NCBI GenBank assembly: GCA_964553025.1
Contig: CAZKJF010000018.1
Coordinates: 1,641 to 65,640, forward strand
Reading direction: 5' to 3'
Source: an uncultured Candidatus Saccharibacteria bacterium
Lineage (GTDB): Bacteria; Patescibacteriota; Minisyncoccia; 2-02-FULL-40-12; GWA2-44-9
DNA length: 64,000 nucleotides
The notes below the pieces were generated by a model. The model was given only the letters and a program-made list of their open reading frames with translations, did no database searches and had not been told where the DNA came from. Numbering within the stretch: the stretch's first letter is position 1; each line of letters begins with the position of its first letter. Position numbers and translations under genes: made by a program. Positions 29,269 through 64,000 of the stretch are shown piece by piece.

Positions 29269-29291
29269 GATCCCCCCATCATTTGATAGTG

Positions 29292-30122: not shown

Positions 30123-30141
30123 GGGTGTTTTCTTGTTTCTG

Positions 30142-30212: not shown

Positions 30213-30224
30213 AACCGTCCTCGT

Positions 30225-30562: not shown

Positions 30563-30644
30563 ATGCTGCCAATACTCTACACCAAAACTGCCGTTTCAGC
30601 TAGTAATTTCAACAAAAATTTGCTAGAGTAGCAGAATAACTTTT

Positions 30645-30715
30645 GCGGGATTCGTATATCGGTAATACATGAGTTTTCCAAACTCAAGAGACGGGTTCGA
30701 CTCCCGTATCCCGCT
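30645..30715 (+). tRNA. tRNA-Gly (anticodon UCC)
   Basis: Manual fold: acceptor GCGGGAT/ATCCCGC, U8, D-arm GTAT-ATCGGTA-ATAC, anticodon stem TGAGT/ACTCA with loop TTTCCAA (UCC), T-arm ACGGG-TTCGACT-CCCGT, discriminator U. Confidence 0.8.
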
Positions 30716-30733
30716 CCTTCAGTCCGGCAACAA

Positions 30734-38759: not shown

Positions 38760-40069
38760 AAGCTTTTCTCAATCTCGGCCGCAGTGCGCTGGACGGAATT
38801 CGCGTAGGAGTTGCAAGCCGCGGTCGAGCATTTTGAGTTGCCGCTGTAATATGCTTTTGACGCCGCGATTTCAGCAGCCGCCGTTTTGCCGGTTGCACCG
38901 CCATTAGCAAGCTTGATAGCCGCAGCCGTAAAGGCATCTTCGATATTCCAAGGATTGGCAGGGTGGCCGACGACAGCTGTTACCCGATCGACGTACGCGA
39001 TCCAGGTCGAAGGAATGAACTGTGCCGGCCCCATTGCGCCGCCCCAGCCGTATTGCTTGCCGTTAATGAATTGCGGGCAGGAGACCGCCGTATTGTTCGG
39101 ATCCAATCCAAGCTGGCTGGTGATCGTCAGGAAGGGCTGGTGATCGCGCGGGTGCATGATCGCCTGCCAATGTTTAGAGGGCGGGTCTTCCGGCCGGTTG
39201 CATTTGCCGACGTTTTTACCGAGTCCGGATTCGATTTCCAATTCAGCCAGTAAAAACGCCGGCCGAATACCCGCTGAAATCGCCGCGAGATTTCCGTATT
39301 TGATCGCATCGTCCACCGACACGCCATTTTGAGTCAAATACGTAATTTCGCTCTGCAGCCGCGTAATGTCCGTTTTAGATTGGGTCACCAGCTGCTGGAA
39401 CTTCGATTCCTGGCCTTTGGTATCCTTCAAAAGCTTATCTTTTTGAGCCTTGGCCTGGTTTAAACTGTCTTTTTCAAGCTGTTCAAGATTCTGCTGCTGG
39501 CGAAGATCGTCAAGCTGATCTTCAAGTTCGTTTTCTTTGTCTTCCAAGTCCGCGTGGACGGTTTTAATGTTGTCGATCGTGGCTTTAAGGTCGTCCTGGG
39601 TCGTCTCGACGCTATTTAGATCGTTAAAAAAATCGGACAATGTATCATGTTTGAGTAGAATGGTCGTTAAATTTTCTTGATCGTTCTTATAGACCAGGAG
39701 CAAGTATTGCGCCAAGGCCTGCCGGTCTTTTTCAATGCGATTCTCGGCATCAGTAATCTGGCTTTGAGTATCGGCGATCTGGAGATTTGTTTTGCTGATA
39801 GAAATATTCAAACTCTGAATCTCAAGCGAAATCTGGCTGATCTGGGCGTTCAAGGCATTCACTTGGCCTTGCAAGGTCAGGGCTTGGGAATGAATAACGT
39901 CGATTTGCGATTGATATTGATCAATCTGTTTTTGAAGTTCTTCGATCTGCTGGTTCTTGGCCGCGATGTCATCCTGAGTGGCCGCCGAAGCGTTGAAGAC
40001 ATGAAAAACCCAGGCGCACAAAGGCAAAACTAGGGCCAACGTCCAGAGATGATGCATTCGGAACTTCAT
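38756..40069 (-). CDS. secreted coiled-coil protein with C-terminal MltB-like lytic transglycosylase domain
   Basis: Signal peptide, ~230 aa of heptad-rich Q/L/E coiled coil, then a C-terminal ...KQYGWGGAMGPAQFIPSTW... block resembling the GAMGQ.QFMPS motif of MltB-family lytic transglycosylases. Confidence 0.6.
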   Translation of the reverse strand: MKFRMHHLWTLALVLPLCAWVFHVFNASAATQDDIAAKNQQIEELQKQIDQYQSQIDVIHSQALTLQGQVNALNAQISQISLEIQSLNISISKTNLQIADTQSQITDAENRIEKDRQALAQYLLLVYKNDQENLTTILLKHDTLSDFFNDLNSVETTQDDLKATIDNIKTVHADLEDKENELEDQLDDLRQQQNLEQLEKDSLNQAKAQKDKLLKDTKGQESKFQQLVTQSKTDITRLQSEITYLTQNGVSVDDAIKYGNLAAISAGIRPAFLLAELEIESGLGKNVGKCNRPEDPPSKHWQAIMHPRDHQPFLTITSQLGLDPNNTAVSCPQFINGKQYGWGGAMGPAQFIPSTWIAYVDRVTAVVGHPANPWNIEDAFTAAAIKLANGGATGKTAAAEIAASKAYYSGNSKCSTAACNSYANSVQRTAAEIEKSL

Positions 40070-40145
40070 CGCAATAAGTATATCAAAAAAGTGGACAACC
40101 TGCTATGGATATACGCGTAAATGTTTTATACTGTTAATAACTCAC

Positions 40146-48583: not shown

Positions 48584-49930
48584 TTAATATCCGAACTTTT
48601 CAAAGTGGATCCGGGCCGGCGCCACTCCTAAGCCGCTGACGATGTGCCGTATGGCTTCTGTCATGGCCGCCGGGCCGCAAAAATATATATCCCGCTCCCG
48701 ATAATCAGAGACATACTCCTTTATGTGGCCGCCGTCAATACGGCCGGGCTCATGGCTCGATTGATGCTGTTCGAGGAAGAAATAGAGCTTGAACGGATGC
48801 CGGCGCTGGAGCGCGAGCAATTCCTCTTTAAACACGATATCGTGTTCGGTGCGATTGGCGTACAGTAATATCACATCGGCGCCGGCGGCCGCCAACGGTT
48901 CGATCATAGCCCGGATGGGCGTGATGCCGATGCCGCCGGCGATCAGCAGGAATTTGTCAGTCTGGGCGATCTCCCGCGTAAATACTCCCAGCGGCCCGTC
49001 AATGACGACTCTCGTTTCCGCCTCCAGCTTATTGATTCGGGACGTAAAATCGCCCGCACCCCGAATCGTAAACCGAATCTCGCTGCCGCCGGGCGGCAGC
49101 GAGAACGAGAATGGATGGGCGAACAGCATTCCTTTCTGCAAAAAGAATAAATTGGCGAACTGGCCGGGCCGATACCGAAAAGCCGCCAGGTTCCTGCCGG
49201 TTATATAAATAGAGTGGACGTCGGGCGCTTCGCGGACGATCCGATCGATGCGGAATTTAAACCGGTTCAGATTCCAGAGCGGTCTTATGAACCGGAATAG
49301 CACTAGAAGGCCGAACGCACCCCAGGTAATGGATTGCCATGCAAACTTGGCGGCAGGATTGCCGGCGAAATCGCCGAAGTTTGTTTGATGCTCGAGCACC
49401 AGGATAATCGCGGCGTAGACGGAGAGATGGATAAGGTACCACGTTTCGTAGCGATAGCGCCGGTGCAGAAACATCCGCACCGAAGCGATAATAATCGTGG
49501 CGAAAATCACCCAGGCAATAAACGCTTCCCAAACTCCGTCCCAGACGGTAACCAGCGTCCAAGCCTGGCCCCAAAATCCCGTCTGGCTCCAAACTGCGTG
49601 ACCCAGAATGATCAGGAGCGGATGCAGTATCAAGAAAGCCGACAGCGTGAACCCGTTATACTGATGCCAGCGATTCAGTTTATCGTGGCCGAAAGCCTGC
49701 TCGATAAAGGGAATGCGACCGATTAGGAATATCTGCAGGAGCACGCCGGCCTCCGCCAGGAGGCCGGCGAGGCGGCCCAGCGCGACCACACGGGCGCCGG
49801 GCCCGCCCCGGTTCATCAAAGCCCCCCACCCCGGCGGTCCCCAGAAAAAAAAAAGACAGCCCCAGGCCGCCGCGCCGATTGCGGAGATAATTAACCGTTT
49901 TAAGGCAAGTAATCGAGTACATTGAGCCAT
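48584..49930 (-). CDS. NOX/FRE-family flavocytochrome: ferric-reductase-like 6-TM domain fused to FAD/NAD(P)H-binding oxidoreductase domain
   Basis: TM region with His pairs, an FAD motif (RPGQFANL..HPFSFS) and an NAD(P)H motif (LLIAGGIGITP). 448 aa. Confidence 0.7.
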   Translation of the reverse strand: MAQCTRLLALKRLIISAIGAAAWGCLFFFWGPPGWGALMNRGGPGARVVALGRLAGLLAEAGVLLQIFLIGRIPFIEQAFGHDKLNRWHQYNGFTLSAFLILHPLLIILGHAVWSQTGFWGQAWTLVTVWDGVWEAFIAWVIFATIIIASVRMFLHRRYRYETWYLIHLSVYAAIILVLEHQTNFGDFAGNPAAKFAWQSITWGAFGLLVLFRFIRPLWNLNRFKFRIDRIVREAPDVHSIYITGRNLAAFRYRPGQFANLFFLQKGMLFAHPFSFSLPPGGSEIRFTIRGAGDFTSRINKLEAETRVVIDGPLGVFTREIAQTDKFLLIAGGIGITPIRAMIEPLAAAGADVILLYANRTEHDIVFKEELLALQRRHPFKLYFFLEQHQSSHEPGRIDGGHIKEYVSDYRERDIYFCGPAAMTEAIRHIVSGLGVAPARIHFEKFGY

Positions 49931-51185: not shown

Positions 51186-54100
51186 TTACTGGCGTTTGTA
51201 TGGGGGGACTTGCGAGAGCGAAGTGTAGGCGTTCGAAGAGAGCGTGTACCACGCGAATTCATTGTTGTTGACGCAGAACACTTTTTTGAAGAATTCCGGG
51301 TCTTGAGCAACGGCCTGATCGCCGGCCATATTGACCCAATGCAGGATTGCAGTATCTTCGCCCGTCACCTCCACCGCGTAGACCTTCGGATCGTTGGTCT
51401 CACAATTTTGGAAGAGGGTCGTGGTCGGAAACGCATCGCGGGCTTCGGGCGTGATAGTCTTCACATTGCTCCAGCCGCCGAGGTGGCCGTAGAAGTTGAA
51501 GATCACGGGATTCAGGAACAGCCGCTTATAGCCGTAAGTATTGATTATATAAATGTCGGGGTCATTGGAGCCAGCGGCGCTGATCATTTGACCTTCGTTA
51601 AGACCGTACTTGCCAAGGTTAGCCGAATCCCCAGTCGTGATACCCAAGACAGTCGGACTGGGCGTAGGTGTCGGCGAAACCACAGGCGTTATTGCGCCGC
51701 AGCCGCCACAACCCCCGCCTCCACCACTGGATAAAGGTTGCGGAGTCGGCGTGGGCGTAGGTGTCGGCGAAGTTGACGCTTCAATCTCATTGCCATACGT
51801 TTCCGGCGAGCCGTGCGATACCGGCCGGAAATAATACGAGGTTGCCGCGGCCAACCCGCTGATCGTCACCGAATGGCTCACAACCAATTGAGAATCTTCA
51901 CCGGTCGTATTCGCATACCCGTAGCATTCGAAAGATGCGGAAGCGACAGCTGTCGGATTGCAAGTGTTCGCGCCGACCGGCTCATGGGAAACCGTATCCC
52001 AGACGACGCGGCTTGTCGCCGGATGAGTTGTAGTCCACGTGATCGTAATGCTGTCCGAGGTGGCAGAAGCGGTTTGTTGGGCAAGCACATGGAGCGTGGC
52101 GGGAATGACGGTTTCAAATTGAGCGGAAGCTACGCCGATATTTCCGGCCGCGTCAGTAGCTTTGAGGGTAAAGATATGGGAACCGCTGGCCGTGAGAACA
52201 GGTTCGAACGGCGAAGCGCATACCGCAAACGAAATAGAATCGATCTTGCATTCGGTCGTTGTCGGACTAGCGTCAGAAACGCTGAACGCCAGATGGGGTG
52301 CGGCGTCGGTGGGACTCGCGATGGGATCAATCGAAACTGCGGGAGCGGTAACATCTTTGTCGCGAAGCGTGATGATACAGGCGGCAGAATGGCCCGTCGA
52401 GAGGGCGCCGACGCACTCGGCTGATCTCGAGGCGGCATAATTGGAAGGTACTGGGGTCGTAATATTCACCGCATACTGTTGATTGGAAGAAATACTGACC
52501 AAGGTTCCCTCGCTGCTGCCGACGAAGGATTGCGGATTGGCAACCACTCCGTCCACGGAAATCGTTAGATCGCTTGGAACCATCGTCCCGCCGAAATTAT
52601 TTTCCACATTCACGGTTACGTTTAGGCTCGGGTCTTTCATTTTTTCCACTCCTTCGGAAACCGTGTACACGGGAATATTCACGGAACGAATGTAATCGAG
52701 AATCGTCCGCAGCATTTCCGGCGTTGCGCCGTACGCCATATCTTCGCTGGTAGATACGCCTTCTTCAATCTGATGGAAAACGAGAATCAGCCAAGTCCGG
52801 TCGGCAACGGCCTGATTGATCCAATTCTTGACCTGGTCGGGTGTAGTATCGGCATTCACCGATTGGCCGTACAGCGCGAACATGTCCACATTCTTGTCGT
52901 TGAAGCCGGGAGAAACGGTGCGGCCCGACGTGTATCCGGCGCCGGCTGAAATTTCTTCAACCGAGTGGTTGTAGCTGCCGTAGGGATATGCGATGGGCAA
53001 AACGGGAGCCAAGCCGCCGCCAAGCAGTTCCTGGCGATTGCCGGAAATTTCCAATGTTGCATCGGTACCGCCAAGCGTGGCCAAATCGGGATGCGTCTGG
53101 GTATGGCCGCCTACCTCATGCCCGTCCGCTTCCAGGCCAGCGACTTGTTCCGGCGTCATAAATATGCTGAATGCTCCGAATGCAACGTCATCCACCGTCA
53201 GCGTCCCCGCTCCGCGAAGTCCGTGAATGACTGTCACCAATTTGGCATCGGGCGGAATATAAATATTGGAAGTTGAATACTGGGTCCACTCGTCGCCCGA
53301 TGAACCAAGCGTCGCATACGGTTTCTTGTCGGAAGTCGCATTGCCGTCGCTATCGATATATTCAAGCGAGCCGCTTGCCACCGTGATTTGAACAAAAATC
53401 GCGGATTGGGTGCTGCTTTTATACCAATCGCTGTAGGAATAAAACTTGTCGGGCAAGATCGTTACGGGCGAGAAATACCAGCCCGGACTGTTGCTGTTGG
53501 TATTGCTTTGATTGGAATGAACTTGTACCGCTCGGCCGGAATGGCCGCCGGAAGAAAGATAGGAAAATGTCGCGTTGGCGCTGCCGGACGTAAGCCAATC
53601 CTTGGGCATGCTTGAGTTTTCCGGATCGACCGTCTCCAATCCGGGGTTCGCAACGCCGAAACCCGACGCGTGAGAAATGATATAAAAGGTTCCTTTGACT
53701 CCCGCCGCGTCCAAAATCGGCTGGGCAATGGTCGCATGATCGGCATAACCGTCATCGAACGTAAGCGAAACAAAGCCGTTAGCGAATGGCACCGGCGGTT
53801 TAACCTGAATTAAACTAAAGTTGTCCAGCGTCAGCGTGCCGGCTGAATAAAGAATATGGTAGACGGTCATGGATGCTGCGCCGTCGGGGACGATAAATGT
53901 TTCGGTAATTGATTTCCAGGTCGTCGTCGGAGTTGCCGGAATATTGTAGAACCCCATGTAGGACAAATGATTGCCGCCCGCGTCGAAAAATTCAGCGGTG
54001 ATAATCGTGGGGACCGACGCCACATAAGCGTCGGAGAACGTGTATTGCCGGCCGGACGTAACGGCGACAGGGTCAAAATACCATTTGGCATCTCCGCCTT

Positions 54101-54767
54101 CATTCAAGCCCGTCGGGTCGCTGTAGACGCCTTGATAGGACGGAAATGAAACGCGGATCGCGTTGCCGTTTGAAATATCGGACTCGGGGCCGCCGGCGAC
54201 GGGATACTCGTAAAGCGGCGCGTTTACGCCCCACTGGGTGCCCTTGGACCAGCCGAGTGGCAGAGACGGATCGGAGCCGGCGGTTTCCAACCCCGGATTC
54301 TTGACGAGATTGGGACTGGGCGCGTTCGGGTCTCCTTCGTCGATGTCATCATAGATAATCGTACAGGTAACGGTATCGTCGGCCGCAATCGATCCGGTGC
54401 AATCAGGAGAGAGCAGTGCTTTGTAGCTTGAGCCTGGGTTGGTGGCGACGATGTAGGCGGCGTTCGGATCGAGCGTGATTACACGTTCGATCGCGCTGCC
54501 GGGAAACGATGACAGGGAGGGATTGGCGCCGGAAACGGTGATGATGAAGTTGCTTTCGATATTCGTGCCGCCATTGTCATTCACGACTGCGGTGATGATC
54601 TTGAGAGTCGCAGGACCCGCCGGTTCGGGTGTCGGGGTCGGTGAAGGACTTTCACTCGGAGTGGGTGTCGGAGTTTCATCGGCGCTGGCGGCGAAGGGGC
54701 TCAAAGGCAGCAGGAAAGAAACCGCTGAAACGACTGCTACTGACAAGAGAAATTTTTTGGTTGACAT
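51186..54767 (-). CDS. giant secreted multidomain polysaccharide deacetylase (NodB-homology domain plus beta-sandwich/CBM/FN3-like modules and PT linkers)
   Basis: Signal peptide; NodB core FVSLTFDDGYADHATIAQPILDAAGVKGTFYII...; numerous beta-rich modules; C-terminal TPTPTPTP...GGGGGCGGCG linker. 1193 aa. Confidence 0.7.
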   Translation of the reverse strand: MSTKKFLLSVAVVSAVSFLLPLSPFAASADETPTPTPSESPSPTPTPEPAGPATLKIITAVVNDNGGTNIESNFIITVSGANPSLSSFPGSAIERVITLDPNAAYIVATNPGSSYKALLSPDCTGSIAADDTVTCTIIYDDIDEGDPNAPSPNLVKNPGLETAGSDPSLPLGWSKGTQWGVNAPLYEYPVAGGPESDISNGNAIRVSFPSYQGVYSDPTGLNEGGDAKWYFDPVAVTSGRQYTFSDAYVASVPTIITAEFFDAGGNHLSYMGFYNIPATPTTTWKSITETFIVPDGAASMTVYHILYSAGTLTLDNFSLIQVKPPVPFANGFVSLTFDDGYADHATIAQPILDAAGVKGTFYIISHASGFGVANPGLETVDPENSSMPKDWLTSGSANATFSYLSSGGHSGRAVQVHSNQSNTNSNSPGWYFSPVTILPDKFYSYSDWYKSSTQSAIFVQITVASGSLEYIDSDGNATSDKKPYATLGSSGDEWTQYSTSNIYIPPDAKLVTVIHGLRGAGTLTVDDVAFGAFSIFMTPEQVAGLEADGHEVGGHTQTHPDLATLGGTDATLEISGNRQELLGGGLAPVLPIAYPYGSYNHSVEEISAGAGYTSGRTVSPGFNDKNVDMFALYGQSVNADTTPDQVKNWINQAVADRTWLILVFHQIEEGVSTSEDMAYGATPEMLRTILDYIRSVNIPVYTVSEGVEKMKDPSLNVTVNVENNFGGTMVPSDLTISVDGVVANPQSFVGSSEGTLVSISSNQQYAVNITTPVPSNYAASRSAECVGALSTGHSAACIITLRDKDVTAPAVSIDPIASPTDAAPHLAFSVSDASPTTTECKIDSISFAVCASPFEPVLTASGSHIFTLKATDAAGNIGVASAQFETVIPATLHVLAQQTASATSDSITITWTTTHPATSRVVWDTVSHEPVGANTCNPTAVASASFECYGYANTTGEDSQLVVSHSVTISGLAAATSYYFRPVSHGSPETYGNEIEASTSPTPTPTPTPQPLSSGGGGGCGGCGAITPVVSPTPTPSPTVLGITTGDSANLGKYGLNEGQMISAAGSNDPDIYIINTYGYKRLFLNPVIFNFYGHLGGWSNVKTITPEARDAFPTTTLFQNCETNDPKVYAVEVTGEDTAILHWVNMAGDQAVAQDPEFFKKVFCVNNNEFAWYTLSSNAYTSLSQVPPYKRQ

Positions 54768-54952
54768 TACGGTAAATTCCGGCAGAGATGCCGGTTCCGG
54801 GCATGCATTTCTAGTGAGGCATATTATAGTCTTTTGCCTTAAATAGTCAAGTATGATGCTGCCGTAACAATCTCAAGGAGAATCAGTATCTACTTCCTGG
54901 CTATCCACAGCAGCGCCTAGAGAAGGCTTATGCATGTGGTACCTTTGAAGCC

Positions 54953-56350
54953 ATGGGAAAAACTCTATTTTCAATGTTAGTAGGGTTTATGAGCCTTGTC
55001 ACATTCTCCCATTACGGCGGCGACTTCCGGACCCACTTCCAACGCGAGATTGTAATACGTCATGTAAATTCAAATCCGACGGCAACGCCGGATTTTGATG
55101 CTGGTCAAATTTCGGATGGCGCCGTAATTTCTTCGTCTTCGTTTGATCCGGCCAATCAAATCGCTCTTTTGCCCTTAACGAAATTACGCAGTTCCCGATC
55201 CCCCGTTTTGCATACGCCGGCGCCGCCCAAACCAACGTTAACTCCAAAGAACATGCCTACCCCACAACCGACTGCAGTACCGACTCCTGCTCCCACTGTA
55301 GTTTTGACGGCGACTCCGCTTGCTACGATTAAAGCCACAATTACTCCCACACCTGTAAACACGCAAGTAGCTTCCGCTCCCACCACTACGCCAAAATCCA
55401 CACCAGCCCCCACTCCCACCAAAACTCCCGCGCCAAGCAAAACACCTACCCCGGCTCCGACTGCAACTCCTAAATCCAGTCCGACGAGAACCCCGACGCC
55501 GTCGCCAATCAAAACTCCCACGCCCACTCCCGCACCATCGCCAACTCCGACTCCCGTCCAGCCGCCCAGCGGCCTAACCTGGGGCGCCTATGTCGGCGAT
55601 GGTTCGGCATCAGCATTTGAATCGCTCGTCGGACACTCCATGGACATGCAAGCGATATTCTCGGCCTGGAACGACGGATTTCCGTCTTATGCTAAATCTA
55701 CAGTCGGCGCCGGCAAAACATTGGTCATATTTTGGGAACAATACGACGTAACTCTGGATCAAATTATCAGCGGCAGCCAAGACAGTGTTATCACTCAATT
55801 CGCCGCCGGCGCCCGATCCTACGGCTCGCCTATTATTCTCGCCCCCTTCCATGAAATGAACGGGAACTGGGACCCCTGGGATGGCACAGTGGGCTCCAAC
55901 ACGCCCGCTAAAGTAATCACTGCCTGGAAACATCTTCGCGACGTGTTCGGCAACGTCTCCAACGTTAAATTCGCCTGGGACGTAAACAACGAATCGGTCC
56001 CCGATACCTCGGGAAATGAGATCAGGGATTATTACCCCGGCGACGCGTATGTGGACTACCTTGCCGTGGACGGCTTTAACTTCGGCAATCCCTGGCAGAC
56101 GTGGGAACAGGTCTTCTCCGATGCGCTCGGCCAGCTCTCGGCTATTTCCTCAAAGCCGATCTATATCCTCTCCATGGCTTCGGCTGATGGCAGCCAGAAA
56201 GGCGCCTGGATCACTGACGGCCTGGGTTCGGCGATTAAAAAATACCCGCAAGTCGCGGGCTGGGTCTGGTTCAATGAAAACAAGGAAGAGAATTGGCTGG
56301 TAAACTCTACGAGCGCGGCTCTGGCCGCTTTCAAGTCGGTAATTCCTTAG
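54953..56350 (+). CDS. glycoside hydrolase (GH26-like, clan GH-A) with ~150-aa Pro/Thr-rich linker
   Basis: N-terminal anchor, a PT-rich low-complexity linker, and a catalytic region with ...ILAPFHEMNGNW... and WVWFNEN. Confidence 0.5.
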   Translation: MGKTLFSMLVGFMSLVTFSHYGGDFRTHFQREIVIRHVNSNPTATPDFDAGQISDGAVISSSSFDPANQIALLPLTKLRSSRSPVLHTPAPPKPTLTPKNMPTPQPTAVPTPAPTVVLTATPLATIKATITPTPVNTQVASAPTTTPKSTPAPTPTKTPAPSKTPTPAPTATPKSSPTRTPTPSPIKTPTPTPAPSPTPTPVQPPSGLTWGAYVGDGSASAFESLVGHSMDMQAIFSAWNDGFPSYAKSTVGAGKTLVIFWEQYDVTLDQIISGSQDSVITQFAAGARSYGSPIILAPFHEMNGNWDPWDGTVGSNTPAKVITAWKHLRDVFGNVSNVKFAWDVNNESVPDTSGNEIRDYYPGDAYVDYLAVDGFNFGNPWQTWEQVFSDALGQLSAISSKPIYILSMASADGSQKGAWITDGLGSAIKKYPQVAGWVWFNENKEENWLVNSTSAALAAFKSVIP

Positions 56351-56793
56351 TTGCAGGCTTCAGCGTCAAGAAGCCTATCGAGAATTTCCTGATTCTGGAC
56401 TTCGCTGCCGGTATACTCGGAGATAGAAAACTTTTCCGCCAGCGCCGCGCGGGAGCTAAAATCAGCCGGCAGGTCTTTTGCGTGCAAATAATCCACGAGC
56501 GAATTTCCCTGGTAGGTTTCCAACTCGGAAATGCAGGTGTGTGATCGATATTTCACGAATGCCGTCGGAATCGGAACGGCCTCCGAATGACCGTCCGTCG
56601 TTTCCCAAAAATCAAGCAAACTTAAAATCTTGTCGGGACGAACGTATCGTTCAACGTGCCGGCTGGCCCGGGAGATATATTTGATATTCGAAGAATTGCT
56701 GGCCAGTCCGGCGCCGATCATAATTCCCGCGGTCGTGAAAACGAACGCAGTGATCAGCACGATGATAAGAATGGGAAGAAACCGGTACTTCAT
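56347..56793 (-). CDS. hypothetical membrane-anchored protein (148 aa)
   Basis: N-terminal TM helix. I recognise no family. Confidence 0.4.
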   Translation of the reverse strand: MKYRFLPILIIVLITAFVFTTAGIMIGAGLASNSSNIKYISRASRHVERYVRPDKILSLLDFWETTDGHSEAVPIPTAFVKYRSHTCISELETYQGNSLVDYLHAKDLPADFSSRAALAEKFSISEYTGSEVQNQEILDRLLDAEACN

Positions 56794-56929
56794 TATTTTT
56801 TCAGGAAATACGTTTCGCGCGCTTTGTCATACGCGCCGCGCGTCTTTTTCCAGCCGATGACGACCAGGTGCACGAGCGTTGAGAGGCCGACAAATGAAAG
56901 AAAGAATGTCATTGCGTACATGTAAGTGT

Positions 56930-57967
56930 TTAAATTTGGACTCGATCGGGTTTGAACCAGACGAGATTTTTTTTGCGAAGGATAACTTCCTTGATGCACT
57001 GCTCGACCAGAATGTATGCGTTGACGTACATCAGGAACATGTACGCAAACGGCGCCAGTACCAGATCAATACGCCGCTCGAAATATGCGGCCAAGATACC
57101 GAAAAGAATTGCGTTGACCAAATACGGGACGAAGAACAATAAGGCCAGCTTCAAATTGATCAGCGGCAGAATGAACATCATCAGAGGGAGAATCACGCCT
57201 TCAATATAAATTAAACCGAGCTCCAGTGCCCCTGCTGGTTTGAAAATAATATCCAAGTGTTTAACGAGATTCTGCCAGCCGCCACCGTACCAGCGGCGAA
57301 GCTGATTGCGGTAGGCATGGAGCGTGGCCGGGTCCTGGGTATTTACCACCGCCTTGCGGTTATACGCGATCTTGTAGCCGGCTTTGTGAATCTTGTACGT
57401 AAAGTCCAGGTCCTCGGTGATCGTGTCATGATCGAAAGTGCAGTAGTCGCGAAAAACTTGGGTTCGGAAGGCCGCTGCCGCGCCCGGGATGACGAACATG
57501 AACCCAATATAGCTTTGGGCCAATTTATGGATATTCTGGCTGATCGAATACTCAAAGGCGCGGCAGCGGGTCAGCCAATTATATTTCATGCTCCGAACAT
57601 ATCCCGACGCCGCGCCGACTGCCGAATCTTTAAATTCTTTTATGATTTCCTCGATGAATCGAGGATCGAGGATCGTATCGGCATCGGTCGTTACCATGAT
57701 GTCGCCGGTTACAAACCGAAGACCGTATTCCTGAGCGCTAGATTTGTTGCCAGTGTTCTTGGGCGTCCGCAGGACCGTAATCCGATCGGCGTATCGAGCC
57801 AGAATTTCCGGCGTCCGGTCTTTGCTGCAGTCATCCACGAAAATAACCTGGTCGGCGGGCCGGGTCTGGTTCAGACAGGACAATACGCATTTCTCGACCA
57901 TTGCTTCCTCGTTATAGCAAGGAATTAAGATCGAAATATTTGGTTTTTTCGTTCGGGACAATGACAC
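56930..57967 (-). CDS. glycosyltransferase family 2, processive (cellulose-synthase-like)
   Basis: ILIPCYNEE...VDDCSKD...TTDADTILDP...QLRRWYGG, with D,D,D and QxxRW motifs plus C-terminal TM helices. Confidence 0.8.
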   Translation of the reverse strand: MSLSRTKKPNISILIPCYNEEAMVEKCVLSCLNQTRPADQVIFVDDCSKDRTPEILARYADRITVLRTPKNTGNKSSAQEYGLRFVTGDIMVTTDADTILDPRFIEEIIKEFKDSAVGAASGYVRSMKYNWLTRCRAFEYSISQNIHKLAQSYIGFMFVIPGAAAAFRTQVFRDYCTFDHDTITEDLDFTYKIHKAGYKIAYNRKAVVNTQDPATLHAYRNQLRRWYGGGWQNLVKHLDIIFKPAGALELGLIYIEGVILPLMMFILPLINLKLALLFFVPYLVNAILFGILAAYFERRIDLVLAPFAYMFLMYVNAYILVEQCIKEVILRKKNLVWFKPDRVQI

Positions 57968-58041
57968 GGATCAGATATATCAAAAAATAAATAGGCGGCT
58001 AAGCCGCCCTATTTATTATCGCAAAATCCCGATTTTGTCAA

Positions 58042-58257
58042 CTATTGGGCTGGTTTTATGAGATCATATAGGAAGAAAGAGACAAATGAAACCAAAAAGC
58101 ACAACGCGCCAAATGTATCCTCGCGGGGCCATGACGCGAAATGCGTCAACGGCAAAGACAGAGTTTCCGGGTGGGTGGACGCGTTGATCGCAATATACAC
58201 CCACCCCAAAAGTCCGAATATGAACAAGGTTTTTGATGCTGATTGAATGAATTTCAT
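58042..58257 (-). CDS. small membrane protein (71 aa)
   Basis: Two predicted TM helices. Confidence 0.3.
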   Translation of the reverse strand: MKFIQSASKTLFIFGLLGWVYIAINASTHPETLSLPLTHFASWPREDTFGALCFLVSFVSFFLYDLIKPAQ

Positions 58258-58266
58258 GATTATAAT

Positions 58267-59574
58267 TTACTGACCGTTCAGGACTTTTTCAAGCGCGTCA
58301 TAAGCCGGCTTCTTGCTGCCGTCATACCTTACCAATCCAAAGAAGTTTTCTTTATTACTACTGTCAGTCCCTACATCTTGGAAAGAGTACCAAAGAAAAG
58401 GTCCCGCCCACGCATACTCCTTATAGTGAGCTAACGCATCCTCCAATATTCTTGATTGCAAATCCTCACTTACATGATCGGCTGCTCCTTCTTTCTTTGT
58501 ATTTCCCAGAATGGCCATATCTCCAGGGCCATTGGTCGGAGCTCCAAATTCTGTAATCCAAATTTTCTTTTGCCCATCACCATTATTCGCCATTATCTGG
58601 TACATCTGCGTCATACCCGGCCATGGATTTCCTGTTGTATTAAAGCTCGGCAAAAAGGGATACGAGTAAGGATGTACTGCTACTCCATCAAAGTATCCTT
58701 TTGCACCATTTGCATACAATTGCTTAACAAAATCAATTTCACCTATATTCCCCTGTCCTGTCATAACCGCAGCCAGACCGCCGGTAAGAACTGTTGCATT
58801 CGGATCGACATTCTTGATTGCAATATAGCTTGCCTTTAATAGAGAGACATAAGAAGACATGTTTACCGTTGGCATCCAGTACCCATAATAGTTCTCCTCG
58901 TTCCAAATTTCCCAAACCTTTACTCCACTAGCTGCATATCTCTTAGCCGCCAAAGAGACAAATTCCGCAAATTGCGAAGGGTCCGCTGGCGCACACTTAT
59001 TTGAAGAGCAGCCAGATGTTCGGGCCCATGTTGGAGTATAGGTCAATAATGCTATTGGTTCTATTCCAAGCTCTTGAGCAACAGAAACAACTAAATCGTA
59101 TCCTGCCCAATTATAAGACTTAGGACCATCTTTTTGAACCAAACTCCAGTCAATATCAAATCTGATCCATTTCACGCCCGCATTCTTCATGACTTGAAAC
59201 CGGGCAGTTAAATCTTTCCGGGACAAAAAAGAAAGACCACCACCGGCCGCAATACCAAAATTGTCTTGCAATGATACAGGCGTATTTGTGTTGGGCACAC
59301 TTGAAGGTTGGGGCAAAGGAGTATTTGCTTTTGAAGAAATTGGTATTACTGTCCTTGCTGGTTTTTGAGGAGATGGCCGAGGGGTCGGAGTCGGCGCAAA
59401 CTGGGATCGATGAGAGAAGAAAGGGTAACGGATCAAGGCCATCGGGCTTTCTTGCTGACTCACGTCTGTTGCGACTTGAGGCATTCTAAAATAAAATACC
59501 CCTAGAACAAGGAGAGTAACCAGGATAATAGAGAGAAAAATCAGTTTACCAAATTCGGGATGTCTATTGCTCAA
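58267..59574 (-). CDS. glycoside hydrolase, clan GH-A TIM-barrel (GH5/GH39-like) with PT linker
   Basis: TM anchor, a PT-rich linker, an acid/base region KVWEIWNEENYYG and a nucleophile region KIWITEFGAP. Confidence 0.65.
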   Translation of the reverse strand: MSNRHPEFGKLIFLSIILVTLLVLGVFYFRMPQVATDVSQQESPMALIRYPFFSHRSQFAPTPTPRPSPQKPARTVIPISSKANTPLPQPSSVPNTNTPVSLQDNFGIAAGGGLSFLSRKDLTARFQVMKNAGVKWIRFDIDWSLVQKDGPKSYNWAGYDLVVSVAQELGIEPIALLTYTPTWARTSGCSSNKCAPADPSQFAEFVSLAAKRYAASGVKVWEIWNEENYYGYWMPTVNMSSYVSLLKASYIAIKNVDPNATVLTGGLAAVMTGQGNIGEIDFVKQLYANGAKGYFDGVAVHPYSYPFLPSFNTTGNPWPGMTQMYQIMANNGDGQKKIWITEFGAPTNGPGDMAILGNTKKEGAADHVSEDLQSRILEDALAHYKEYAWAGPFLWYSFQDVGTDSSNKENFFGLVRYDGSKKPAYDALEKVLNGQ

Positions 59575-60891
59575 AGCTTGATTTTACTTAAATATTGGGC
59601 TATAATAGTAATTACCTATTATAGCACATCCTTGAAAGAAAAGCTTTATAATTTATACCAGGATAGCTTATTCCGTAACTCCTTTTTTCTTATCCTAACT
59701 TCCGGCCTCATGGCTGGATTTGGCTTCTTTTTTTGGCTTATTTGTGCACGTGTTTTTGACGCCAAAAATGTTGGCTTGGCAACATCTCTTATTTCTGCAG
59801 CATCTCTTATGTCTATCTTCAGTACTCTTGGGTTTAACAATGTAATTATTCGTTTCCTCCCAACTTCCCAAAGAAAAGACCATCAAATATCGACAGCCCT
59901 AATTTCAACAGGAATTCTTAGTATTATTGTTTCTGCCCTATTCTGTATTTGGGCAATTTTTACTCACAATTCAGCTTTTACAGCGACTAACGTATTATGG
60001 TTGCTAATTATGACCTTCTCACTGCAGGTCTTCAGTACAACTCTTAACACTATATTCGAGAGTGTCTTTATAGCATATCGTCGTGCAGGATATATTTTGA
60101 CAAAGAGCATCATCTTTAGCACTTTAAAATTAATTATCCTTTTCACTGTCATTGATTACGGTTTTTATGGCATCCTTGGTGCCACTGCTATTTCTACAAC
60201 GATAGCTTGTCTCTTAAGTATCATCTGGCTAATAAAGAAATTTTCTTACCACCCGGTTTTAACTATTGATTCTGAAACAGTTGAAGAAACAAAACATTTT
60301 GCAGCAGGAAATTATCTAGGCACTCTGTTTGGCATACTACCTTCTACAACTTTAATCCTTATTATTTCTTCTCGACTTGGTCCTGAATTTGCTGCATTCT
60401 TCTATATCCCTTCCATGTTTATTACCTTATTGAATGTCATCCCTAGTTCAAGTGCCCAATCTTTCTTCGCAGAAGTATCCCACGATGAACCTGGAATGCA
60501 TACTTACTTTAAACAAACAATAAAACATCTCTTCGGACTTCTTGTCCCGGCTTCAGCCTTAATTATCTTAGCTGGTGGTTATATTTTAAGTTTTTTTGGA
60601 GCTAATTACGCCCAAGCAGGCACAAATCCTCTACGTATCATGGTGCTAGCAAGTTTTGTCGGTGCCGCAAATTATCTTGGAGATACCTTATTGAATATTA
60701 AAAAGATGTCGAGAACATATATATTCATGAATGCTTTGAACTCTCTTGCTATTGTTATTCCAGCTTACATTGTGGCACCTTATGGCCTCGTGACTATTGC
60801 ATGGATATCCCTACTGGGACAAATTATAACATTGGGTATTTACCTAATCATAAACCGGAATCTCCTTATTAGCTTGCGAACAAACTCTTGA
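59560..60891 (+). CDS. polysaccharide biosynthesis flippase (Wzx / MOP superfamily)
   Basis: About 12-14 TM helices with typical Wzx-like topology. AT-rich gene. Confidence 0.65.
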   Translation: MSIAQSLILLKYWAIIVITYYSTSLKEKLYNLYQDSLFRNSFFLILTSGLMAGFGFFFWLICARVFDAKNVGLATSLISAASLMSIFSTLGFNNVIIRFLPTSQRKDHQISTALISTGILSIIVSALFCIWAIFTHNSAFTATNVLWLLIMTFSLQVFSTTLNTIFESVFIAYRRAGYILTKSIIFSTLKLIILFTVIDYGFYGILGATAISTTIACLLSIIWLIKKFSYHPVLTIDSETVEETKHFAAGNYLGTLFGILPSTTLILIISSRLGPEFAAFFYIPSMFITLLNVIPSSSAQSFFAEVSHDEPGMHTYFKQTIKHLFGLLVPASALIILAGGYILSFFGANYAQAGTNPLRIMVLASFVGAANYLGDTLLNIKKMSRTYIFMNALNSLAIVIPAYIVAPYGLVTIAWISLLGQIITLGIYLIINRNLLISLRTNS

Positions 60892-61951
60892 TAGCATTTC
60901 TGGTATTTTCAACAATTGAAGGCCAGTTTAACTTCTCGGCATAAGCCTTTGCGTTTTGAGATTTTTGTTCTAATTTCTCAAGATTTTCAGCTGATTTGAC
61001 CATTGCATCAATCAGGCCATTAGGAGAAACGGGGTTATATTTGTAAACCAAATTGTCAGGTAAGAGAGATAAATCTCCAAGATTGGGCACTATTGCAGAT
61101 CGACCAAAAGAGAAAGAAAGGAGAATTGAACTTGAAGTAGTCACTTTTTTAAAAGGCAGGACCGTAATATTTGCGGCCGCAAAATAAAATTGCAACTCAT
61201 CATCAGGAATTATACCATCATGCCAAATAATTTCATTCGATTCTGACGCCTTATCCAATACTGAACGTAAATGTCGATCCAAACAAAGCCCTCCCACAAT
61301 AAGATGATTATGAGAGCTTTTAATTTTTCTATAAGCGCCCAATAAATCTTCTAATCCTTTATACGGCCTGATACTCCCTATGTAGAGATAAACAAAATCA
61401 CCTAGGGGAATCCGCAACCTTTGTCTACTTTCAAGTCTTTCTGCACCCATTGGATATACTCCAATATAACTCCCAATTGGTACTACAATACTTTTATGTG
61501 GCTTCATTATCTTGATTATTTCGTTTTGTGTTAGAACAGATGGAAATATTACGAGATCAGATTTTTTAATTAAATTAACTCGGGCCTGAAAATCATTTAA
61601 AAACACAGACTCGTGAGGCATAATATTGTGAGCCGTCCATACCAATTTATATCCTAAAAACTTGATCAGAAACAAACAAAATAGATAATACTGATAAAGG
61701 ATTTTCTTTGCAATTCGATTTTGCCAGATTTTTGCTTTGAGAGAAAAGGGGTATACCCAATGAATATGTAAAATTTTATATCCTTGTGTCCTTTTTAAGA
61801 CAAAGAAAACAGGTAAGGAAAATAAATTAAGAGTAGCGCTTGAAGAAAAAGATGGTATATATACAATATTATCACCTCTTTCTCGCATGTGCCGATAGAG
61901 AAGCTCTTGATATGGATTTCCTGTATCTCTAGGGAAAGCAAGAATTTTCAT
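60869..61951 (-). CDS. glycosyltransferase family 4
   Basis: C-terminal GT4-like block ...YIGSIRPYKGLEDLL...; N-terminal Rossmann half. Confidence 0.65.
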   Translation of the reverse strand: MKILAFPRDTGNPYQELLYRHMRERGDNIVYIPSFSSSATLNLFSLPVFFVLKRTQGYKILHIHWVYPFSLKAKIWQNRIAKKILYQYYLFCLFLIKFLGYKLVWTAHNIMPHESVFLNDFQARVNLIKKSDLVIFPSVLTQNEIIKIMKPHKSIVVPIGSYIGVYPMGAERLESRQRLRIPLGDFVYLYIGSIRPYKGLEDLLGAYRKIKSSHNHLIVGGLCLDRHLRSVLDKASESNEIIWHDGIIPDDELQFYFAAANITVLPFKKVTTSSSILLSFSFGRSAIVPNLGDLSLLPDNLVYKYNPVSPNGLIDAMVKSAENLEKLEQKSQNAKAYAEKLNWPSIVENTRNAIKSLFAS

Positions 61952-61953
61952 AA

Positions 61954-62844
61954 TTATTTATGGAGTAAAATTAGAATAACTTTTTTATAAAACCCCAAGG
62001 CATAGATGAGATTCAAAAAAGTTGTTTTAAATGGCTTTTGGCGGATATTTTTGATTATTGGAATAATAATAGTAAGCGGATACCACCAAAAAATAAAAGT
62101 GAGCGGCAAGCCGAGCATCCATGCTCCATATATGATGGGAACGGTATTGTCCCCAGTAATTTTCCAGCGTTGTTTAGGGTGTTTTTTCAAGAGCTGGGCT
62201 TTCGCCATTCCGTATTTGAAAGCTCGCTTCACTTCATCTTTAAAGTTACCCCAATCATGAGTAACAACTGCTTCTCGCACAAATCGAATACGATTACCTT
62301 TTTCTATTGACCGCCATGTAAAATCAACATCGGAACCAAAAGAAAATGACTCATCGAAACCACCTACTGATTCCCAGACACTCTTTTTAAAAGCCAAGTT
62401 AATAGTGGGGCTCGAAGTTAAATAATCGCCTTTTTTATCAGCCGAATTTAAATTTACATGAGTATGCGGACTAAAAGCCTTAACTGATCCCGCCGTCATT
62501 GTTTCTCGGCCCTGGATAATTGGTTCCGTGAGGTTAATAAGCCAATTTTCCGAAGGAACACAGTTTGCATCAATAAAGACAATAATATCCCCGAGCGCAT
62601 TTTTAATACCCATATTTCTTTGCTCTGGAATAGATGCTTTATTCTTAATTACGGAAGGAGCGAAATTAAACCAACGAACCTCAGGATATTTTTTTCTAAG
62701 TGATTCAAACAGGCCTACCCGTGAAGCATCCACAACAATAATTTCGTTGGGAAGCGAACTTTTTTGATACGTCAAAGCATCTAGAGTATTCGCGATACCC
62801 CAGTCATTTTTAACAATTATGATAATTGAAATAACCGGTTTCAT
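61954..62844 (-). CDS. glycosyltransferase family 2
   Basis: MKPVISIIIIVKNDWGIANTLDALTYQ...IIVVDAS...FIDANCVP matches GT2. Confidence 0.75.
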   Translation of the reverse strand: MKPVISIIIIVKNDWGIANTLDALTYQKSSLPNEIIVVDASRVGLFESLRKKYPEVRWFNFAPSVIKNKASIPEQRNMGIKNALGDIIVFIDANCVPSENWLINLTEPIIQGRETMTAGSVKAFSPHTHVNLNSADKKGDYLTSSPTINLAFKKSVWESVGGFDESFSFGSDVDFTWRSIEKGNRIRFVREAVVTHDWGNFKDEVKRAFKYGMAKAQLLKKHPKQRWKITGDNTVPIIYGAWMLGLPLTFIFWWYPLTIIIPIIKNIRQKPFKTTFLNLIYALGFYKKVILILLHK

Positions 62845-62847
62845 AGA

Positions 62848-63948
62848 TTATTTAAATATCTGCGCTGTTTTATTATCGTAAATCTTATTTTTGTTTGCTT
62901 CCAAAAATTTTGACGGATATGTGTAGGCATACTCAGAGCCATTATTATCATACATCCCTTTACCACTGAGGGTATTTAAGTAACTAAGGTAGACATAAGA
63001 GTCCTTACTGATTATTGAGGGTAGTGTCTCAGTAATAATTTTACCCTTACTAATAAAAGAAAAGGCCGTAAGTTGGTGGTATCCCGGGTTGCTCGTAAAG
63101 ATCAAAGAATTATTGTCATAAATATTTTTGAACCACAAAGAAGCTGCTACCTCTGGGGTGCTTGTGTAAAATTTATCATAATCTTCTCCGTAATTATTAA
63201 GGCCGATAGATGGAAATCCCCCGGTTATATTAAAAACAAACCCAGAGTAAAACAAAAACTGAATGCAATAGAGACAAGCCAAAATAAACATACTCGCTCT
63301 TTTACTCTTGATAGTTTTTATTAGGGAAAAACCTCCATAAACACCGCAAATCCCCCAAAAAATAAGGAGTTGGAAATAAAGTCGCTCTAGATTATATTGA
63401 TCCAATGCTTGTGGAATCAAAAGAAATAAAGCTAGCAAAATAAAACCAGAGAACGAAAGCCAAATAAATTCACTTAACTTAAACTTACCTCTATACCAGC
63501 CATATACCAAGAGTAAAACTCCAGCAACAACGAAGATGTTGTTTAACGTAATCTTGGTATATTTAAAAGTCAGGAGTATAAAAGATTTTACTTTTACCCC
63601 AAGAAGAGGTGGAATTTGTTTAAATACAGCAGAACTAATTACTTGGACAGAAATCTCTTGATCATTATAATATCGAAGCGAGGGCTCTTTTTTCTTAAAA
63701 TATTCAGTAGCTTGGGTAATATAGGTCGGCAGATCGACACTGGCTGAATTAGCATATAATGTTTGGTCAATTGCTCCAGTGATTATATCTGATGTAAAAA
63801 TCTTGCTGACATTAGAGGATGATTGATCGATAAAATTTGTAAAATTATTTGAGGTGTGAGTAATGAAAGTATTCCAAACCAATACAGAGCAAACAAGAAA
63901 TATAATGAAAAAAAATGAAATCGTGCTACTAAAAACAACATCGGGCAC
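62848..63948 (-). CDS. polytopic membrane protein, possible oligosaccharide repeat-unit polymerase (Wzy-like)
   Basis: Multiple TM helices, embedded in the GT/flippase cluster. Start near the window edge is uncertain. Confidence 0.4.
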   Translation of the reverse strand: MPDVVFSSTISFFFIIFLVCSVLVWNTFITHTSNNFTNFIDQSSSNVSKIFTSDIITGAIDQTLYANSASVDLPTYITQATEYFKKKEPSLRYYNDQEISVQVISSAVFKQIPPLLGVKVKSFILLTFKYTKITLNNIFVVAGVLLLVYGWYRGKFKLSEFIWLSFSGFILLALFLLIPQALDQYNLERLYFQLLIFWGICGVYGGFSLIKTIKSKRASMFILACLYCIQFLFYSGFVFNITGGFPSIGLNNYGEDYDKFYTSTPEVAASLWFKNIYDNNSLIFTSNPGYHQLTAFSFISKGKIITETLPSIISKDSYVYLSYLNTLSGKGMYDNNGSEYAYTYPSKFLEANKNKIYDNKTAQIFK

Positions 63949-64000
63949 AAGTTTCTTAATTCGCGACCAGCGAGTTACCCAAAAAGAAATCTTGTTTAAA

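Follow-up and report, generated by a model that had tools for sequence, protein, structure and literature searches.

The window analysed here, a 64,000-nt stretch of contig CAZKJF010000018.1, ends in a block of AT-rich genes whose products are predicted to build a surface glycan and of which one, encoding a protein of the Pfam family DUF2206, runs off the window end. Contig DASZRS010000004.1 (77,311 bp; assembly GCA_035548855.1; labelled Candidatus Paceibacterota by NCBI) supplied the sequence past that point. The locus fetched from it, L001, is identical to the window across 12,047 common bases and appends 8.8 kb past position 64000; for positions >64000, given as contig equivalents, the numbering of the window is carried on.

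The low-coordinate border of the block coincides with a GC-rich, bidirectional, terminator-like hairpin (57993..58009, both strands; 7-pair stem with 6 G-C pairs, from a terminator scan), which lies between the host-GC gene of a PgaC/NodC-like glycosyltransferase of family 2 (GT2; 56930-57967) and the block. The first gene of the block (58042..58257, − strand) encodes a 71-aa two-helix membrane protein that carries the motif LTHFxxWPREDTFG and has no family assignment. The protein is 83%, 59% and 52% identical to those of open reading frames (ORFs) at the same position in loci L004, L086 and L088, respectively, and the motif is invariant. In related loci this gene is always found directly downstream of a PslG-like gene. 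In the window, the PslG-like gene (58267..59574, − strand) encodes a glycoside hydrolase (GH) of clan GH-A that matched Pfam GH39/GH5 above cut-off and comprises an N-terminal membrane anchor, a Pro-rich linker and a TIM barrel. The anchor depends on translation from the TTG at 59574; the source annotation places the start at 59484. The catalytic NE (N195/E196) and TE(F)G (T311/E312) motifs were invariant in 30 homologues, and the best PDB match of an AlphaFold2 (AF2) model with a predicted local distance difference test score (pLDDT) of 86 was PslG (5bx9; E 9e-25, TM-score 0.68). Based on the modelled (beta/alpha)8 fold and the conserved acid/base and nucleophile glutamates, the protein is predicted to be a PslG-like hydrolase.

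The next gene (59632..60891, + strand; an alternative ATG at 59560 yields 443 aa) encodes a Wzx-like flippase of the MOP family. Residues 38-300 matched Polysacc_synt (PF01943) with an E-value of 3e-12 and 47.0 bits, against a cut-off of 28.2; no NCBIfam equivalog was matched. According to a Kyte-Doolittle scan, the protein has ~11 hydrophobic segments, some of them merged, where ~12-14 helices are expected of the class. A promoter scan placed a promoter-like site ahead of the gene at 59578-59606. At its 3' end the flippase gene overlaps by 23 nt the first of a series of glycosyltransferase genes with which it is convergent. This is the 360-aa family 4 glycosyltransferase GT4-360 (GT-B fold class; 60869..61951, − strand), which matched Glycos_transf_1 and Glyco_trans_1_4 above cut-off (34 bits; cut-off 27). 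GT4-360 is a lineage-variable gene: it has no homologue in loci L003 or L006, its closest database relative is 67% identical and all others ≤47%, and these relatives accompany a different DUF2206 clade. It is followed by GT2-296 (GT-A fold class, 296 aa; 61954..62844, − strand), which scored 44 bits against Glycos_transf_2 (cut-off 23.3), has 2-3 C-terminal hydrophobic helices according to a scan for transmembrane (TM) helices, and is 83-85% identical to its counterpart in L003.

The DUF2206 gene (62848-65106, − strand), encoding a 752-aa protein with a predicted GT-C fold, occupies 62848..64000 of the window, and its frame is open to base 64000, the gene being cut by the window end. The part in the window, residues 370-752 (383 residues), comprises four late TM helices and a C-terminal alpha/beta domain; the N-terminal GT-C core lies beyond. 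The original prediction had listed four ORFs on this stretch. Its coordinates and Pfam classes held for the flippase, the GT4 and the GT2, but the flippase is on the + strand and the other three genes are on −, which makes them convergent. The fourth ORF, 62848-63948, had been taken as a complete gene for a polymerase-like membrane protein; it is in fact the C-terminal part of the DUF2206 protein, and alone it matched no Pfam family, including those of the Wzy type.

Beyond the window and upstream of DUF2206, all on the − strand and only a few bases apart, lie the genes of GT4-399 (399 aa), of a 620-aa fusion of a GT2 with a polysaccharide deacetylase of carbohydrate esterase family 4 (CE4), here GT2-deacetylase, which is the last low-GC gene, of a 617-aa GT2-GT4 fusion at host GC, and of a 148-aa anchored protein whose relatives show weak similarity to DUF1616. 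The best family for the GT2 domain of the 617-aa protein was AglJ (TIGR04182; E 4e-54, 184 bits, 216 of 293 profile positions), followed by Dol-P hexose transferase and PpgS. Further out, at L001 2247-2286 (~70,560-70,600), an inverted repeat (18 nt, perfect, 4-nt loop) lies between an extracytoplasmic function (ECF) sigma-factor gene and the first gene of the glycan operon; it is probably a terminator that parts the two transcription units.

The block is set off sharply by composition. In 1-kb bins, the GC fraction was 0.43-0.57 over positions 1-58000, with a single bin below 0.48, and then 0.437 (58-59 kb), 0.403, 0.367, 0.341, 0.372 and 0.339 up to the window end. A 300-nt profile resolved a first fall at ~57.9 kb and a second at ~59.5 kb. 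The trough extends from ~58,040 to 68,174, ~10 kb in all, of which 4.2 kb are past the window end. At the high-coordinate border, the 7-nt gap that divides the genes of the 620-aa and 617-aa proteins is the exact point where GC is back at 0.50-0.56. At the low-coordinate border, GC at third codon positions (GC3) is ~0.6 in the 345-aa PgaC/NodC-like GT2 and 0.3-0.45 in the GH gene. The drop in GC had been anticipated, but its start had been placed within or after the GH5-like gene. By silent sites, the GH gene is a member of the trough: its total GC is 0.44 because its amino-acid composition is conserved and host-like, but its GC3 is 0.38. The only other GC dip in the window, at 22001-23000 (0.426), is inside a gene for a UvrD-helicase/PD-(D/E)XK nuclease (959 aa, 20418-23297) that has the lowest GC3 (0.47) of the genes outside the trough.

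Gene GC3 ranged from 0.28 to 0.38 inside the block and from 0.47 to 0.69 in the remaining 47 genes of the contig. Individual values were 0.28 for GT4-360 (0.277), 0.30 for GT2-deacetylase, 0.31 for the flippase, 0.33 for GT2-296, 0.34 for GT4-399, 0.35 for DUF2206 and 0.38 for the GH gene. These 7 lowest-GC3 genes of 54 are all contiguous, for which the chance, by our arithmetic, is 48/C(54,7) or ~3e-7. Tetranucleotide usage normalised for base composition was likewise not uniform: 8.5-kb windows of host sequence correlated with the host profile at 0.91-0.98, the block at 0.51. The expected low-GC segment up to the window end is thus borne out by GC, GC3 and base-normalised tetranucleotide usage, and its composition is, as proposed, unlike that of the host-GC glycan operon at 1-6912. 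The encoded proteins reflect the shift to AT-rich codons: the residues Phe, Tyr, Asn, Lys and Ile make up 0.33-0.39 of the glycosyltransferases, the flippase and DUF2206, compared with ~0.25 otherwise, and in 83 homologues the FYMINK-minus-GARP index followed gene GC with r = -0.97.

We considered whether the trough is an artefact, either of a chimeric contig joining two organisms or of the composition of hydrophobic membrane proteins. The sequence does come from a metagenome-assembled genome, and the flippase and DUF2206 are very hydrophobic, with Phe, Leu, Ile, Met and Val amounting to 0.42 of residues. Nevertheless, both junctions of the trough lie within tightly packed genes and recur in independent assemblies of a sister species (GCA_964479865.1 and Logan SRR12170517/16), and an independent Logan contig matches the block of the window. 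Membrane-protein bias was examined by per-gene GC at each codon position, by host membrane-protein controls and by the base-normalised tetranucleotides, and was rejected because the soluble GT4s of the block share the low GC3 (0.28-0.34, as AT-rich as the block's membrane proteins), whereas host-GC membrane proteins do not (0.60-0.68; Wzy_C at 3371-4930, 25138-25899 and 48584-49930). An artefact of either kind is therefore very improbable.

To place the locus among its relatives, we scanned one genome per species with the DUF2206 alignment. The 293 relatives found were mostly from Patescibacteria, with others from Chloroflexia/Ktedonobacteria, Actinomycetes and some archaea. Dozens of loci in Patescibacteria, Chloroflexota and Actinomycetota have the same operon skeleton, comprising DUF1616-like, GT2/GT4, DUF2206, convergent Wzx-like and PslG-like genes. 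Co-occurrence was counted in 82 loci. A Wzx-like gene was present in 64, the GT2-GT4 fusion in 47, a PslG-like GH in 42 and the 148-aa DUF1616-like protein in 38; GT4-399, GT2-296, GT2-deacetylase and GT4-360 were found in 13, 11, 6 and 4, respectively. The Wzx-like gene was downstream of DUF2206 in 58 loci and convergent in 50, with a gap between DUF2206 and the flippase of 36-8583 bp. What fills this gap differs: GT2 and GT4 in the window, GT2 in L003, GT4 in L006, two GT4s in L086 and GT4 plus ATP-grasp in L088. In a census covering 107 neighbour proteins of 12 diverse loci, GT4 (35), GT2 (15), Polysacc_synt (12) and GH5/GH39 (9 and 4) headed the list, which also included CE4 deacetylase (7), DUF1616 (7) and pyruvyl transferase (4). 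Locus content was therefore not identical among relatives, and the description of the locus as serotype-like is supported inasmuch as glycosyltransferase content varies between species.

Identity to the window of the GT2-GT4 fusion and of DUF2206 was uncorrelated (r = 0.11); in L039, L048, L049 and L084, the former is 61-62% identical and the latter 28-30%. Low-GC central genes between conserved host-GC genes also occur in L003, L086 and L090. In L086 the trough is shallower (0.38-0.43 within flanks of 0.51-0.58), and in L090 a GT2-GT4 fusion 65% identical to the 617-aa protein, at GC3 0.70, directly adjoins another cassette whose GC3 is 0.37-0.50. In L006, which lies on a 1.18-Mb contig, the genes are ordered alike but at native GC (0.53-0.57); L088 and L007 are uniformly low in GC. 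Over 42 loci with full flanks, GC was lower by 0.02-0.04 between -7 and +5 kb of DUF2206 and was below the flanks at the gene itself in 93%. The difference of -0.17 in the window exceeds those of all 64 loci with measurable far flanks, a separate set in which the lowest value was -0.15.

Overall, we favour, with moderate confidence, the interpretation that the AT-rich stretch is the variable centre of a conserved, chromosomally resident surface-glycan operon of a Paceibacterota bacterium (Patescibacteria/Candidate Phyla Radiation, CPR), and that its low GC is old and represents an AT-rich equilibrium. The operon reads, in order, the 148-aa DUF1616-like gene and the AglJ-like GT2-GT4 fusion at host GC, the 7-nt gap, and then GT2-deacetylase, GT4-399, DUF2206, GT2-296 and GT4-360 at low GC. 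The Wzx-like flippase meets its end convergently and is followed by the divergent PslG-like gene and the gene of the 71-aa membrane protein. The block is regarded as resident because it sits in mid-operon, with 7-nt and overlapping gene junctions.

By contrast, the original prediction had suggested, as one of two options, horizontal acquisition. In its strictest form, this would be a genomic island: a foreign Wzx/Wzy-type module inserted recently from a low-GC donor, with composition yet to ameliorate. The large break in GC, GC3 and tetranucleotides and the AT-shifted amino-acid composition are what such an event would leave, and atypical GC is conventionally taken as a sign of transfer (PMC3715488). 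In a neighbour-joining tree, moreover, the DUF2206 of the window clusters with AT-type homologues, and a similar cassette occurs in the low-GC relatives L007 and L088. However, instead of adding genes, the block takes the place of a conserved operon's central part, and the hallmarks of mobility are missing. A tRNA scan and Rfam revealed no tRNA at the block borders, the only tRNAs being at 29-31 kb. A repeat search returned none >27 nt and neither direct nor inverted repeats at the borders, and the annotation for 10 kb to either side contains neither an integrase nor a transposase. The block is not a mobile island. Nor was a donor nameable: in searches with DUF2206, GT2-deacetylase, GT4-399 and GT4-360, the nearest homologues outside the sister species were 45-67% identical (for the island reading, homologues only 45-50% identical leave no donor in sight). 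Together with the lack of a Wzy and with the sister-species data below, these results make a recent island improbable.

The module is also not of the classic Wzx/Wzy-dependent type that had been proposed. No initiating phosphoglycosyltransferase of the WbaP/Bac_transf or WecA/MraY type was found within 10 kb on either side, and the locus contains neither a Wzy_C/EpsG-type polymerase nor a Wzz/polysaccharide co-polymerase chain-length regulator. Consistent with this, Wzy_C, Bac_transf, WecA/MraY-type and Wzz were outside the 25 most frequent Pfam families of the neighbour census. The broader assignment to surface-glycan biosynthesis, with a MOP/Wzx-type flippase, GT4 and GT2, is supported by the Pfam matches.

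We then used the locus of a sister species, L003 (GCA_964479865.1; L004 and L005 are Logan assemblies of the sister), to estimate the age of the trough. L003 shares ~76% nucleotide identity with the window and synteny over 20 kb, and its DUF2206 is 77% identical. Its trough has the same borders, and GC3 steps down at the same junction, from 0.74/0.64 (window/L003) in the last codons of the GT2-GT4 fusion to 0.28/0.20 in the first 50 codons of GT2-deacetylase. The ratio of non-synonymous to synonymous divergence (dN/dS) was 0.04-0.13 in block and flank genes alike. As dS was saturated in both compartments (1.1-2.7), we measured instead the excess of identity at 4-fold degenerate sites under conserved amino acids. 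In the block (n = 852), observed identity was 0.427 and that expected from composition 0.292, an excess of 0.19, with GC at these sites (GC4) of 0.33/0.30 (window/L003). In the flanks (n = 1016), the corresponding values were 0.467, 0.285 and 0.25, with GC4 of 0.71/0.65. These data indicate that block and flanks are about equally diverged, with roughly 80% of silent sites turned over.

The same trough with the same borders in a sister at saturated divergence equal to that of the flanks indicates that the low GC is old and unameliorated rather than a fading trace of recent import. In a two-state model with a per-lineage memory of ~0.44, the ancestral GC4 that we calculate for an approach to a host equilibrium of ~0.68 comes out negative, so that in this model amelioration toward host GC cannot account for the block. 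Because the low GC predates the split of the sisters and has not drifted toward host composition, the block appears to rest at an AT-rich equilibrium of its own. This may be due to lineage-specific DNA escaping GC-biased gene conversion, to selection favouring AT-rich or rare-codon genes, or to continual exchange with an AT-rich gene pool. The idea that lineage-specific DNA has no allelic partners for GC-biased gene conversion reportedly goes back to Lassalle et al. 2015.

A second form of transfer, which we rate as rather unlikely, is repeated serotype switching. Here, each lineage would have replaced the cassette independently after the split, taking related alleles from an AT-rich Paceibacteria pool through homologous recombination within the conserved genes on either side; the low GC would then belong to the pool rather than to the host. 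Mosaic loci are consistent with such replacement: identities to the window are 29% for Wzx and 45% for DUF2206 in L007, 56% and 36% in L061, and, as noted above, 65% for the GT2-GT4 fusion and 29% for DUF2206 in L090, where the GC step directly after the fusion is seen again. GT4-360 is likewise present in the window and absent from L003, and the 148-aa gene is unusually diverged between the two (55% identity, compared with 86-95% for its neighbours). Against this, the borders match within one gene junction in both species, the silent-site memory is nearly equal in block (0.19) and flanks (0.25), and divergence relative to L007 is similar for block and flank genes. The window lineage is also slightly GC-richer than L003 in both compartments, as long co-residence predicts. 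A resident block at an AT-rich equilibrium is favoured over re-acquisition because the borders coincide, the divergences match and this slight difference runs in the same direction in both compartments. With respect to habitat, the window organism and its sister (L002 and L004/L005) occur in Logan runs with neighbouring accessions (SRR12170511, SRR12170516 and SRR12170517), and the two populations, which differ in cassette content, may share a habitat.

To understand what the operon might do, we examined the DUF2206 protein. The Pfam model (PF09971) spans only residues 514-751, and the sequence matched no PDB chain, leaving fold comparison as the informative approach. An AF2 model built with 28 homologues had a pLDDT of 86.4 and a predicted template-modelling score of 0.88. 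In a Foldseek search of the PDB, 20 of the top 21 matches were GT-C enzymes, with probabilities of 0.99-1.00 (STT3, AglB, AftA, PglB, DPY19, ArnT and ALG9); rank 20 was a peptide transporter with a probability of 0.16. Further fold matches included AftA/B/D, PMT, ALG and PimE, and the C-terminal domain resembles that of AglB. According to the model, the protein is thus predicted to have a multi-helix GT-C membrane fold, with four extra TM helices after the mid-protein loop. Residues R204, D212 and E216 are invariant in the 28 homologues. The family is large, with ~3,000 cluster representatives at 50% identity (E ≤1e-30).

The full protein and 27 homologues matched none of the Wzy, EpsG or O-antigen ligase families, the only matches being DUF2206 itself and, in 6 of the 28 (best E 1.3e-6; the window protein not among them), PMT_2. 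There was no match to Pfam STT3, YfhO or Glyco_transf_22, and the predicted fold is not WaaL/Wzy-like. Assignment to the oligosaccharyltransferases (STT3/AglB/PglB) was rejected, as the 28 homologues lack the WWDYG motif and did not match the STT3 profile. Among DUF2206 homologues, P0105, P0116, P0380, P0414, P0428 and others, some have an N-terminal GT4 fusion (1,100-1,180 aa), and other homologues carry 750-1,000 additional N-terminal residues. The GT4-DUF2206 fusions are Rosetta-stone hints of a GT-C enzyme that works with cytoplasmic GT4s.

From these assignments, the following pathway can be proposed. The AglJ-like GT2 would charge polyprenyl phosphate; because the AglJ score is below the equivalog cut-off, a start on polyprenyl monophosphate is only what we infer. 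Soluble or peripheral GT2 and GT4 enzymes would lengthen the lipid-linked oligosaccharide on the cytoplasmic face, with the CE4 domain removing N-acetyl groups, and the Wzx-like protein would flip it. The DUF2206 GT-C enzyme would then act outside the cytoplasm, either polymerising the oligosaccharide or transferring it to an acceptor in the wall or on a protein, filling the place of Wzy or a ligase in classic systems, and the PslG-like hydrolase would trim the product. Many lineages keep the operon skeleton, and the glycosyltransferases encoded between its genes change from one lineage to the next, a pattern shared with O-antigen and capsule loci.

Alternatively, DUF2206 may add single sugars outside the membrane, using a polyprenyl-phosphate-sugar made by the AglJ/DPM-like GT2 to decorate a wall polymer, glycolipid or protein in the manner of GtrB/GtrC, ArnC/ArnT, CsbB/YfhO or Ppm1/PimE. 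We regard this function as a minority possibility, though one with evidence in its favour: most of the GT-C enzymes matched by fold (ArnT, PMT, Aft, ALG and PimE) take single sugars from polyprenyl-monophosphate donors, Dol-P hexose transferase and PpgS are among the families matched by the GT2 domain, and PMT_2 was matched by 6 of the 28 homologues. More tentatively than for the operon itself, and with some doubt, we propose that DUF2206 is the terminal extracytoplasmic transferase or polymerase of an undescribed Agl-like lipid-linked pathway with a cassette at its own AT-rich equilibrium. Such a pathway, with an AglJ-like start, a Wzx-like flippase, a GT-C end and neither Wzy nor phosphoglycosyltransferase, would be widespread in Patescibacteria, Chloroflexota, Actinomycetota and some archaea.

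Several points weigh against the reading of an old, resident block with an Agl-like pathway. The AglJ match of 184 bits is below the NCBI equivalog cut-off of 325. An initiating phosphoglycosyltransferase or a Wzy could lie elsewhere in the genome, the sequence examined being 77 kb, and a Wzy_C gene (3371-4930) is indeed present in a separate host-GC operon 55 kb away. The argument that the low GC is old and has not ameliorated draws on two genomes, on silent sites that are saturated and on a simple model, and that block and flanks are equally diverged might, in principle, be a coincidence, had each lineage replaced the block with that of a related donor. Variation was observed at the level of species, the closest genome being that of a different species (~76% nucleotide identity); a metagenome scan anchored on the conserved GT2-GT4 fusion returned nothing above 71% protein identity. 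The neighbour-joining placement of DUF2206 is as a low-GC donor predicts, although compositional attraction could mimic it, and for that reason we do not rely on it. Finally, a literature search yielded no mention of DUF2206, PF09971 surfacing only with regard to membrane-protein motifs. For DUF1616 it yielded only the listing of such a protein as an N-glycoprotein of Haloferax, and for Candidate Phyla Radiation with oligosaccharyltransferase and Patescibacteria with flippase nothing relevant.

Other glycan genes occur at host GC in the window. The operon at 464-8586 (− strand) encodes GT2, a LytR-CpsA-Psr ligase, GT2, a Wzy_C protein of the O-antigen ligase/polymerase family (519 aa), a 661-aa GT2+GT4 protein and GT4. 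The genome therefore has a Wzy_C-type enzyme, though in another locus. The 661-aa protein (4927-6912) was considered as a close paralogue of the 617-aa fusion and rejected, with 25% identity in the GT4 part only. Adjoining the trough, a host-GC module at 51186-57967 encodes a 1193-aa secreted CE4 deacetylase (HfsH/PgaB-like), a GH26 enzyme, a 148-aa ORF and the 345-aa PgaC/NodC-like GT2; it is 82-87% identical in the sister species and may be a synthase-type poly-N-acetylglucosamine or chitooligosaccharide-like system. Within the GH26 ORF, GC skew reaches -0.47 at 55150-55600, where a ~150-residue Pro/Thr-rich linker joins the N-terminal anchor to the catalytic domain. Calls of this ORF differ: the source annotation has the C-terminal 234 aa, the sister assemblies L004 and L003 have 457 and 236 aa, respectively.

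Three further features of the window were noted. Four tRNA genes (His, Pro, Arg-TCT and Gly-TCC), which have no relation to the trough borders, lie in mixed orientation at 29204-30717. Three large adjoining ORFs at 37494-42299 (421, 437 and 717 aa) had no Pfam match at E ≤1e-4. The alanyl-tRNA synthetase at 17916-19610 is only 564 aa long and consists of the catalytic core and SAD domain; such shortness is common in reduced CPR genomes.

Serotype-like glycan loci of low GC are a textbook feature of Enterobacteria, and the same signature is now seen in a CPR bacterium, whose cell surface probably governs host attachment and phage exposure. In Salmonella, the genome has 51-52% GC, the glycosyltransferase, wzx and wzy genes have 28-37%, and genes by the conserved flanks are intermediate (PMC3715488); the O-antigen/capsule clusters of Enterobacteria, such as Salmonella rfb, have the same size and pattern of compositional break as the block described here. 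According to Reeves and colleagues, the low GC seen in wzx and wzy 'needs explanation' (PMC3715488), and an operon of two compartments makes the question testable. Silent sites have become saturated since the speciation event that the trough matches in age, yet it is equally deep in both species, which counts against a recent import awaiting amelioration. If the reading of an AT-rich equilibrium is true, low GC in glycan loci would reflect a mode of evolution and not foreign origin.

In architecture, the O-antigen/capsule clusters of Enterobacteria and this locus alike retain skeleton genes while their glycosyltransferases are swapped, encode a MOP flippase and lack mobility genes. By contrast, this locus lacks Wzy, a WbaP/WecA-type enzyme and Wzz, and has the DUF2206 GT-C and AglJ-like GT2 proteins instead; its host is a CPR bacterium without an outer membrane, and the variation is between species. 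The Psl locus of Pseudomonas aeruginosa also places a clan GH-A endoglycosidase (PslG) by a MOP-type flippase (PslK) and GT2/GT4 enzymes. However, PslA (a phosphoglycosyltransferase), PslJ (Wzy-like), PslE and PslD have no counterparts here, and Psl has no GT-C. The recurrent neighbourhood places a GT-C enzyme where a Wzy or ligase is expected, making it a target for glycobiology and glyco-engineering.

The archaeal Agl pathway (AglJ, AglG/I/E, AglR and AglB) resembles the locus in its AglJ-like GT2, further GT2/GT4 enzymes, Wzx-like flippase and large GT-C enzyme. AglR belongs to the class of Wzx-like MOP flippases. The differences are that DUF2206 lacks WWDYG and a Pfam STT3 match and has four extra TM helices, that the AglJ match is below cut-off, and that this locus has no known glycoprotein acceptor. 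Three-component GT-C systems (GtrA/B/C, ArnC/ArnT and CsbB/GtcA/YfhO), and the mycobacterial PimE/Emb/Aft enzymes, likewise combine a polyprenyl-phosphate GT2, a flippase and an extracytoplasmic GT-C. Here, by contrast, the flippase is a large MOP protein rather than GtrA- or SMR-like, and there are many extra cytoplasmic glycosyltransferases. In its logic, the enzymology of the locus is closest to the archaeal Agl pathway or the three-component GT-C systems, and not to classic Wzx/Wzy.

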